From IMG/VR virus record IMGVR_UViG_2706794696_000002: a DNA stretch of 20,762 nt; one strand, written 5' to 3'. This stretch comes from a virus. Taxonomy: Duplodnaviria > Heunggongvirae > Uroviricota > Caudoviricetes. Position numbers: made by a program. Within the stretch, counting starts at the first letter, position 1, and every line of letters starts with the position of its first letter. Below are positions 18,901 to 20,762 of the stretch, in pieces.

Positions 18901-20762
18901 AGGCAGGTTGAAACCACAGCACGCTATCTTGGCACGGCGCTGTACTGGATAGCCGCCAGTATCAATATCAAACCGGGCCATGATTATTACTTTTATATCC
19001 GCAGTGTGAACACCGTTGGCAAATCGGCATTCGTGGAGGCTGTTGGTCAGCCGAGTGATGATGCATCCGGTTATCTGGATTTTTTCAAAGGCGAGATAGG
19101 GAAAACCCATCTGGCTCAGGAGCTGTGGACGCAGATTGATAACGGTCAGCTTGCGCCTGACCTGGCTGAAATCAGGACGTCCATTACGGATGTCAGCAAT
19201 GAAATCACGCAGACCGTCAATAAGAAACTGGAAGACCAGAGTGCGGCAATTCAGCAGATACAGAAGGTTCAGGTTGATACAAATAATAACCTGAACAGCA
19301 TGTGGGCTGTGAAGCTGCAGCAGATGCAGGACGGACGCCTTTATATCGCGGGTATTGGTGCCGGTATTGAGAACACCCCTGACGGCATGCAGAGTCAGGT
19401 GCTGCTGGCGGCGGACAGGATTGCGATGGTTAATCCTGCGAATGGCAACACAAAACCGATGTTTGTTGGTCAGGGCGATCAGATATTCATGAACGACGTG
19501 TTCCTGAAACGCCTGACGGCCCCCACCATTACCAGCGGTGGAAATCCATCGGCATTTTCCCTGACTCCGGACGGAAAGCTGACCGCTAAAAATGCGGATA
19601 TCAGTGGCAGTGTGAATGCGAACGCCGGGACGCTCAACAATGTCACGGTAAATGAAAACTGTACGATTAAGGGCATGCTGGAGGCGACTCAGGTCAGAGG
19701 TGACTTCGTTAAAGCTGTATCCAAATCATTTCCGAAACAGGCTGGTACGTGGGGTAACACGGAAACACCAAACGGGACGGTTACAGTCACCATAAGCGAT
19801 GATCATAACTTTGACCGCCAGATTATTATTCCGCCCATTATTTTTAACGGTATAGCGTATGACGATCCGGGGAGCGGAAATAACCCAGGAGGCACGCGAT
19901 ACACGGGTTATGGTTTTGAAGTTCGCAAAAACGGCGTATTAATCGCATCCAGAGAAACTAAAGGTGCCATTCCCGGTAGTTACAGTGCAGTTATTGATAT
20001 GCCTAGTGGTGGTGGTAGCGTCACTCTGGAGTTTAAGATTTTCCAGAAAGGCAATCAGGGGGCAGGCAATATCACCGACTGTACGGTGATTGTGACCAAA
20101 AAAGCGGCTTCCGGCATCAGTATTCGTTGAAATATTTATAACCCCAATAAATGGCGTCAGGAATGACGCCTTTTTTATTGCAGAAAAGCGAGAGGTAATT
20201 ATGCGTAAAGTTTGTGCAGCCATTTTGTCCGCAGCCATTTGCCTGGCCGTATCCGGTGCGCCTGCATGGGCGTCTGAACATCAGTCCACGCTGAGCGCGG
20301 GGTATCTTCATGCCCGGACCAACGTTCCCGGCAGTGATGATCTGAACGGGATTAACGTGAAATACCGTTATGAGTTTACGGATACGCTGGGGCTGGTGAC
20401 GTCATTCAGCTATGCAGGAGACAAGAATCGCCAGCTGACCCGTTACAGCGATACCCGCTGGCATGAAGATTCCGTTCGTAACCGCTGGTTCAGCGTAATG
20501 GCGGGGCCGTCTGTGCGCGTGAATGAATGGTTCAGCGCGTATGCGATGGCGGGTGTGGCTTACAGCCGTGTGTCGACTTTTTCCGGGGATTATATCCGCG
20601 TAACTGACAATAAGGGGAAAACGCACGATGTGCTGACCGGAAGTGATGACGGTCGCCACAGCAACACGTCTCTGGCGCACTGACGGTTTCATCGTGGGTG
20701 TCGGTTATAAATTCTGATTAGCCAGGTAACACAGTGTTATGACAGCCCGCCGGTTCAGGCGG

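Follow-up and report, generated by a model that had tools for sequence, protein, structure and literature searches.

The J protein encoded in the analyzed stretch of DNA (20,762 nucleotides from the IMG/VR virus record IMGVR_UViG_2706794696_000002, hereafter the window) is a recombinant in which three known lambdoid modules are combined: a common body, a shaft of the phage 21 type and a tip of the phage 434 type. This parentage was assigned based on four agreeing analyses: protein alignment, module identities, sliding DNA identity and informative sites. The C-terminal third of J was aligned with the corresponding regions of lambda, 434, 21, phi458 and PhiR29_1, and the origin of each module was evaluated from DNA identity in a 100-nt sliding window, runs of informative sites and per-module protein identity.

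Gene J and its genomic context

The window covers the late genes (head and tail) of a lambda-like prophage, in which gene calls and matches to lambda placed lambda-like genes H, M, L, K and I before gene J (16633..20130, + strand), which codes for the tip attachment or central tail fibre protein. The gene was intact, and both the ORF list and the translation yielded a product of 1165 aa, confirming the length that the original prediction had set against the 1132 aa of lambda J; the homologues from phages 21 and 434 have 1160 and 1137 aa, respectively. All six Pfam domains detected in J (FNIII-A_GpJ, Phage-tail_3, Ig_J, Ig_J_second, Phage_Tail_Tip and Ig_GpJ_C) scored above the curated cut-offs and followed the order known for lambda, with Phage_Tail_Tip located at aa 872-1000 and Ig_GpJ_C at aa 1029-1164 (E = 3e-25). 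Moreover, gene calls at the matching loci of Shigella sonnei agreed with the position of J after the tape measure and the M-L-K-I tail-tip genes. Both by domain architecture and by gene position, J is a lambda-type tip attachment protein. Two antisense ORFs called within the gene (17422..19110 and 19939..20238) were without support.

Sequence and fold searches with the fibre and tip of J retrieved, as best PDB matches, the gpJ fibre structures of lambda (8xck, closed; 8xcj, with LamB) and of A8 (9wca, closed; 9wcb, with OmpC), A8 gpJ being the top match in the sequence search. The exact 1165-aa protein was found to be encoded in S. sonnei chromosomes including that of 53G (HE616528.1), with thousands of assemblies in the index, and a partial S. 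sonnei protein of 500 aa was 100% identical across the last 365 aa of J. In E. coli, nt 19080-20130 of the window were covered by at least 80% in 1164 out of 5426 complete genomes, and the genes covering this region are labelled “phage attachment tail tip protein J” in RefSeq.

Two further observations were made outside gene J. A run of 253 N, representing masked sequence, occupies positions 15174-15426, inside the L/K tail-tip genes, and accounts for an apparent break in lambda similarity (15173-15427) and for two artefactual ORFs (14586..15491 and 15434..16003); a minimum in GC content at ~15021-15451 coincided with the same run and was discarded as a biological feature. At 258-683 (- strand), upstream of cos and nu1, a 141-aa ORF matched DUF1398 (E = 3e-43); this accessory gene lies in the interval that separates the lysis genes from cos.

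Divergence from lambda

The window was collinear with positions 13-18002 of the lambda genome at 95-97% nucleotide identity (97.4% between nt 1171-15173 and lambda 13-14016, and 95.1% between nt 15427-19129 and lambda 14299-18002). Identity decreased to 78.9% at nt 19299-19686, and from nt 19687 onward no lambda similarity was detected by blastn until short matches to lom at 20340-20398 (83%) and 20672-20753 (95%). At the protein level, J shared 82% identity with lambda J (NC_001416) over its whole length (BLASTP), with the differences very unevenly spread: 780 of 803 residues (97.1%) were identical at aa 1-803, compared with 175 of 323 aligned residues, plus 45 gap positions, at aa 804-1165 (Fisher p = 7e-68).

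Most of what had been predicted for this region was in agreement with these results. The sequence had been proposed to leave lambda after ...SAFVEAVG, and the protein break was located at aa ~804-806; the last ~150 aa had been described as little like lambda, and the last 152 aa showed 40% identity with 17 gap positions. Regarding the boundaries assigned to the divergent region (19080-20130), the divergence itself was corroborated, but its left edge had to be moved, since informative sites placed it at ~19041. The AT-richness noted at 19700-20130 was real but modest (GC content of 0.469 vs. 0.588 in the body of J, the 8th percentile among windows of the same size), with a value of 0.477 for the last 457 nt. 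GC content at third codon positions was 0.46 in the receptor-binding domain (19674-20127) vs. 0.71 in the body of J (p = 3e-9).

Mosaic structure of J

The first module (16633..19040, + strand; aa 1-803) is a common body that includes the hub domains and two FNIII/Ig domains. Its protein identity was 97.1% with lambda, 97.8% with 434 and 97.3% with phage 21, while nucleotide identity to lambda, 434, 21, phi458 and PhiR29_1 ranged from 87 to 100% in 100-nt steps.

The second module (~19041..19509, + strand; aa ~804-959) comprises an alpha-helical shaft of the phage 21 type and the upper part of the central straight fibre. In this segment, 151 of 156 residues (96.8%) were identical to phage 21 J without gaps, and identity to phi458 was 100%; values against lambda and 434 were 55-56%, with 28 gap positions. 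These correspond to a 28-aa insertion at aa 836-863 of the window protein, residues that both lambda and 434 lack. Informative sites turned to the phage 21 type at 19041 and reverted at 19497-19510. In terms of the lambda domains named in cryo-EM work (alpha-helical shaft and beta-prism fibre; PMC11101478), this module is equivalent to the alpha-helical shaft plus the top of the beta-prism fibre, and the insertion point falls within the upper helix (809-840), following lambda residue 835.

A conserved stretch corresponding to the lower fibre (19510..19673, + strand; aa 960-1013) separates this module from the third one, and is a probable crossover zone. Identity here was 80-91% to lambda, 434, 21 and PhiR29_1, and 98% to phi458, and informative sites followed lambda and 434, not phage 21.

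The third module (19674..20130, + strand; aa 1014-1165) is a receptor-binding domain of the 434 type (Ig-like, PF12421). It was identical to phage 434 J at 145 of 152 residues (95.4%), with no gaps and the same indel pattern, and to the J protein of the hybrid phage lambda h434 imm21 at 144 of 152 (94.7%); identity was highest with PhiR29_1 (99.3%) and was 40% and 42% with lambda and phage 21, respectively. Similarity of the 434 type extended past this module through the terminator between J and lom and into lom. The modules would have been joined by homologous recombination within the flanking conserved stretches.

The mosaic nature of J that had been anticipated was thus borne out by the parentage of its modules, and the idea of horizontal exchange found support in a receptor-binding domain that is the allele carried by phage 434. 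Two parts of the original prediction did not hold. The first was that of a longer receptor-binding region: 28 of the 33 residues in excess of lambda belong to the shaft module, and the tip domain is 5 aa longer than that of lambda. The second was that of a single host-range cassette, according to which nt 19080-20130 (together with lom) would have been acquired in one exchange. When the window is compared with lambda alone, the region from ~19041 to ~20671 does look divergent throughout. However, the left part (~19041-19509) matched phage 21 and the right part (~19674 onward) matched 434, with the conserved stretch at 19510-19673 between them, and either part occurs without the other in deposited phages, so that a single exchange is extremely improbable.

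The combinations found among deposited phages showed that the shaft and tip modules assort independently. A shaft of the 21 type was associated with a 434 tip in phi458, mEp332, cdtI, ev243, Ayreon, Kati and PhiR42_1, and with a 21 tip in phage 21, while the 434 tip was joined to a lambda-type shaft in 434, Evi, 2B8, PhiR26_1 and PhiR29_1. The distributions of tip and lom also differed, which further argues against a single cassette: the 434-type tip allele was present in 74 deposited phage genomes and a 434-type lom (at least 90% nucleotide identity) in about 156 phage records, and each was found without the other (434-type tip without 434-type lom in ev207 and PhiR11_1_star; 434-type lom with other tips in YYZ-2008 and JLK-2012). 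This independent assortment across phage records ruled out that tip and lom are inherited together as a functional pair.

Receptor predicted for the 434-type tip

Given a tip domain of the 434 allele, this phage would most likely recognize the porin OmpC, not LamB. Phage 434 is reported to use OmpC, and lambda to bind this porin when it has the 434 fibre gene (PMC3509688, PMC11101478); the passage of PMC3509688 dealing with 434 and OmpC cites Fuerst & Bingham 1978. Based on the allele match and the reported OmpC use of 434, a 434-type tip with OmpC as receptor is the probable reading of the sequence, and a receptor other than LamB, one of the two options suggested earlier, is likely.

The reasoning behind that suggestion was less well founded, as divergence from lambda turned out to be a poor predictor of a change in receptor: the tip domains of lambda and phage 21 share 50% identity, and both phages use LamB (PMC11336670). 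The same comparison favours the possibility that LamB, or a variant of it, remains the receptor of the divergent tip found here, as it is for that of phage 21; so does the presence of the exact J in S. sonnei, whose LamB is a strong lambda receptor (PMC11101478). Nevertheless, this is very unlikely given that the tip was 95% identical to the 434 allele and 40-42% identical to the lambda and 21 alleles, and that both 434 and lambda with the 434 fibre gene have been reported as OmpC users. Measured against lambda J aa 982-1132, the domain was not the lambda-type LamB-binding allele (40% identity, 17 gap positions), and the lambda residues S1012 and D1107 aligned with N1042 and N1146 of the window protein, respectively.

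Closely similar tips of one class need not share a receptor. The tip of A8 (PDB 9wca), which uses OmpC, was 82% identical to the tip of the LamB-using phage 21 (J, nt 3450-4013), indicating that class membership alone does not give the receptor, and a single mutation in J is enough for phage 21 to use OmpC (PMC11336670). Lambda is redirected to OmpC when natural J C-termini are attached at aa 964 of its J protein (PMC11338833), a graft point that corresponds to aa 992 of the window protein. In lambda h434 imm21 (OM418627; described as a hybrid in PMC9119081), the switch from lambda to 434 sequence was located at J aa ~705-711, and the classical h434 hybrid also has the lom and side tail fibre genes of 434; hence, the contribution of the tip domain by itself is not separated out by the old genetics. 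OmpC use is reported for some lambdoid mEp phages (PMC11893012), and a literature search for direct receptor data on mEp332, mEp460, phi458, Ayreon, cdtI and the PhiR and ev phages retrieved none. A preprint on receptor prediction (10.64898/2026.04.02.716166) was considered as a source for this allele and was set aside, as it covers GpJ of the Drexlerviridae type instead.

Substitutions in the tip relative to phage 434

Seven differences separate the tip from that of 434 (S1032A, Q1036K, A1037V, N1047D, I1136V, Q1138H and G1143R), and they form two patches (1032-1047 and 1136-1143) adjoining the positions that correspond to lambda residues 1012 and 1107, which are required for the use of OmpF (PMC6646904). 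The proximity of the seven differences to these positions gave p = 0.0004 in a post hoc test, while the 29 polymorphic sites of the allele class showed no significant clustering at the four hot spots published for lambda (p = 0.06 and 0.24).

Through these substitutions the tip might bind another porin, or have a shifted or dual specificity (for instance for OmpF or for certain OmpC variants). Besides the position of the patches, such a reading would be consistent with the ability of the A8 and 1A2 chimeras to discriminate between OmpC variants (PMC11338833), and with the fact that one to four mutations in J alter porin use in phages 21 and lambda (PMC11336670, PMC6646904). It is nonetheless unlikely, considering that the patch test was made post hoc and that the test with all 29 sites and four hot spots gave p = 0.06, and also that K-12 is the recorded propagation host of PhiR26_1 and mEp332, in which this allele occurs at 97-99% identity, and that 434 grows on K-12 hosts as well. 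Growth of these three phages on K-12 suggests that ordinary K-12 OmpC is accepted by the allele class. A related and rather doubtful proposal is that the S. sonnei sub-allele is not functionally equivalent to the 434 tip and is instead tuned to an OmpC variant, such as that of Shigella, or to a second porin; if this were true, the sub-allele would represent a natural case of fine-scale tracking of receptor variants inside one allele class.

The h434 hybrid (OM418627) differed from both 434 and the window at two sites, with W at the equivalent of window position 1143 (R in 434, G in the window) and N at the equivalent of position 1078 (D in 434 and in the window). Since the 1143-equivalent site is among the most polymorphic of the allele class, the h434 stock may carry a host-range change of its own.

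Shaft insertion and fibre mechanics

The 28 additional residues of the shaft would be unrelated to the choice of receptor, since the shaft module is shared with phage 21, which uses LamB. The insertion has another parent than the tip, and is expected to make the fibre longer while leaving the choice of receptor unaffected. An AF2 monomer model of J aa 801-1165, built with an alignment of 26 sequences, placed helices at the insertion and shaft with low confidence; mean pLDDT was 54.6, with values of 60-90 in the tip domain, the model being usable for that domain only.

In lambda, four loops at the base of each tip domain enter the porin; on binding, the tips move apart, the fibre twists, the shaft is flipped and the tail tip opens (PMC11101478). 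By analogy, a J trimer would constitute the central tail fibre of the phage, and the bottom loops of its three Ig-like tip domains would insert into a trimeric outer-membrane porin. Binding to the porin would then spread the tips, twist the beta-prism fibre, flip the helical shaft and open the tail tip for DNA ejection, the trigger mechanics being presumably the same as in lambda.

Residue F924 of lambda J triggers the prophage-encoded abortive-infection nuclease HepS (PMC13043305). Its equivalent was conserved in the window protein (F952, nt ~19486-19488), which would be expected to trigger HepS as well.

Region downstream of J

The sole signal detected between J and lom was a hairpin resembling an intrinsic terminator (20153..20180, + strand), formed by GGCGTCAGGAATGACGCC and then TTTTTTATTG, with the hairpin at 20153-20170 followed by a T-run. 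A terminator is annotated at the equivalent place in phage 434 (18940-18966), and an Rfam scan of 18800-20762 gave no matches. The following gene, lom (20201..20683, + strand), encodes a truncated outer-membrane protein of the Ail/Lom family (Pfam Ail_Lom, profile positions 1-159 of 199) and is of the 434 type, with 92-97% nucleotide identity to 434 lom in 100-nt steps. A deletion of ~83 nt between CTGGCG direct repeats near 20671 caused a frameshift, resulting in a product of 160 aa instead of 199, which is also called in S. sonnei genomes; the lom gene of the window is probably a pseudogene. At the S. sonnei loci, the region 3' of lom contained a side tail fibre gene (1027 aa), a tail fibre assembly gene, copies of IS1 and the integrase of another element. 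In view of the IS1 copies and the foreign integrase, the prophage may be decayed at the end downstream of J.

Relationship to known phages

With phage 434 (OL657226), the window shares the receptor-binding domain, including its indels, and the 434-type terminator and lom downstream, but J of 434 has a short shaft of the lambda type, with 28 residues less than the 21-type shaft of the window, and the two differ in the seven tip substitutions and in the truncation of lom. Phage 21 J (OL657228) shares the module at aa 804-959 with its 28-aa insertion, yet has the dissimilar tip described above and no lom between J and stf. With respect to lambda J, the body (97%), the domain order and the fold family of fibre and tip are shared, while the lambda shaft module has 55% identity and lacks 28 aa, its tip is 40% identical, and lambda binds LamB.

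The OmpC chimeras A8 and 1A2 (PMC11338833) have in common with the window a natural J C-terminus that redirects the phage when placed on a lambda body, within the same family and fold, but they carry other tip alleles. Identity between the window tip and the A8 and 1A2 pieces was ~32-37% (tblastn against sequence text of the supplement damaged by OCR), which ruled out that the tip is either of these alleles; the values of 48-53% obtained against A8 with Foldseek were obtained over longer stretches, with the conserved lower fibre among the aligned parts. The modules are combined in the same way in the sequenced phages phi458, mEp332, cdtI, ev243, Ayreon, Kati and PhiR42_1, in which nt 18600-20762 were fully covered at 95-96.5% identity. 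They differed from the window in point substitutions only, except that phi458, whose J also has 1165 aa, has in addition an intact lom of 199 aa.

Among the classics of lambda genetics is the h434 host-range allele. The “specificity region” of J, with its clades and indels, has been analyzed in 1207 natural homologues (PMC6646904), and OmpC-directed J chimeras have been published (PMC11338833), with matching structures in the PDB. Taking these precedents together with the 74 phages that carry the tip allele and the 1164 out of 5426 E. coli genomes that cover the region, the module arrangement of J is ordinary, common, already known and sequenced many times.

Concerning the lambdoid family, the results indicate that the receptor is poorly predicted by the length of J or by its divergence from lambda, and that the informative step is to find, for the last ~150 residues, a matching allele whose receptor is known, bearing in mind that even an allele match can mislead, as the 82% identity between A8 and phage 21 hides a receptor switch. 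For annotation purposes, the tail tip of this prophage is to be read as 434-type and probably OmpC-specific rather than LamB-specific, which is useful for predicting host range and superinfection of lambdoid prophages in Shigella and E. coli.
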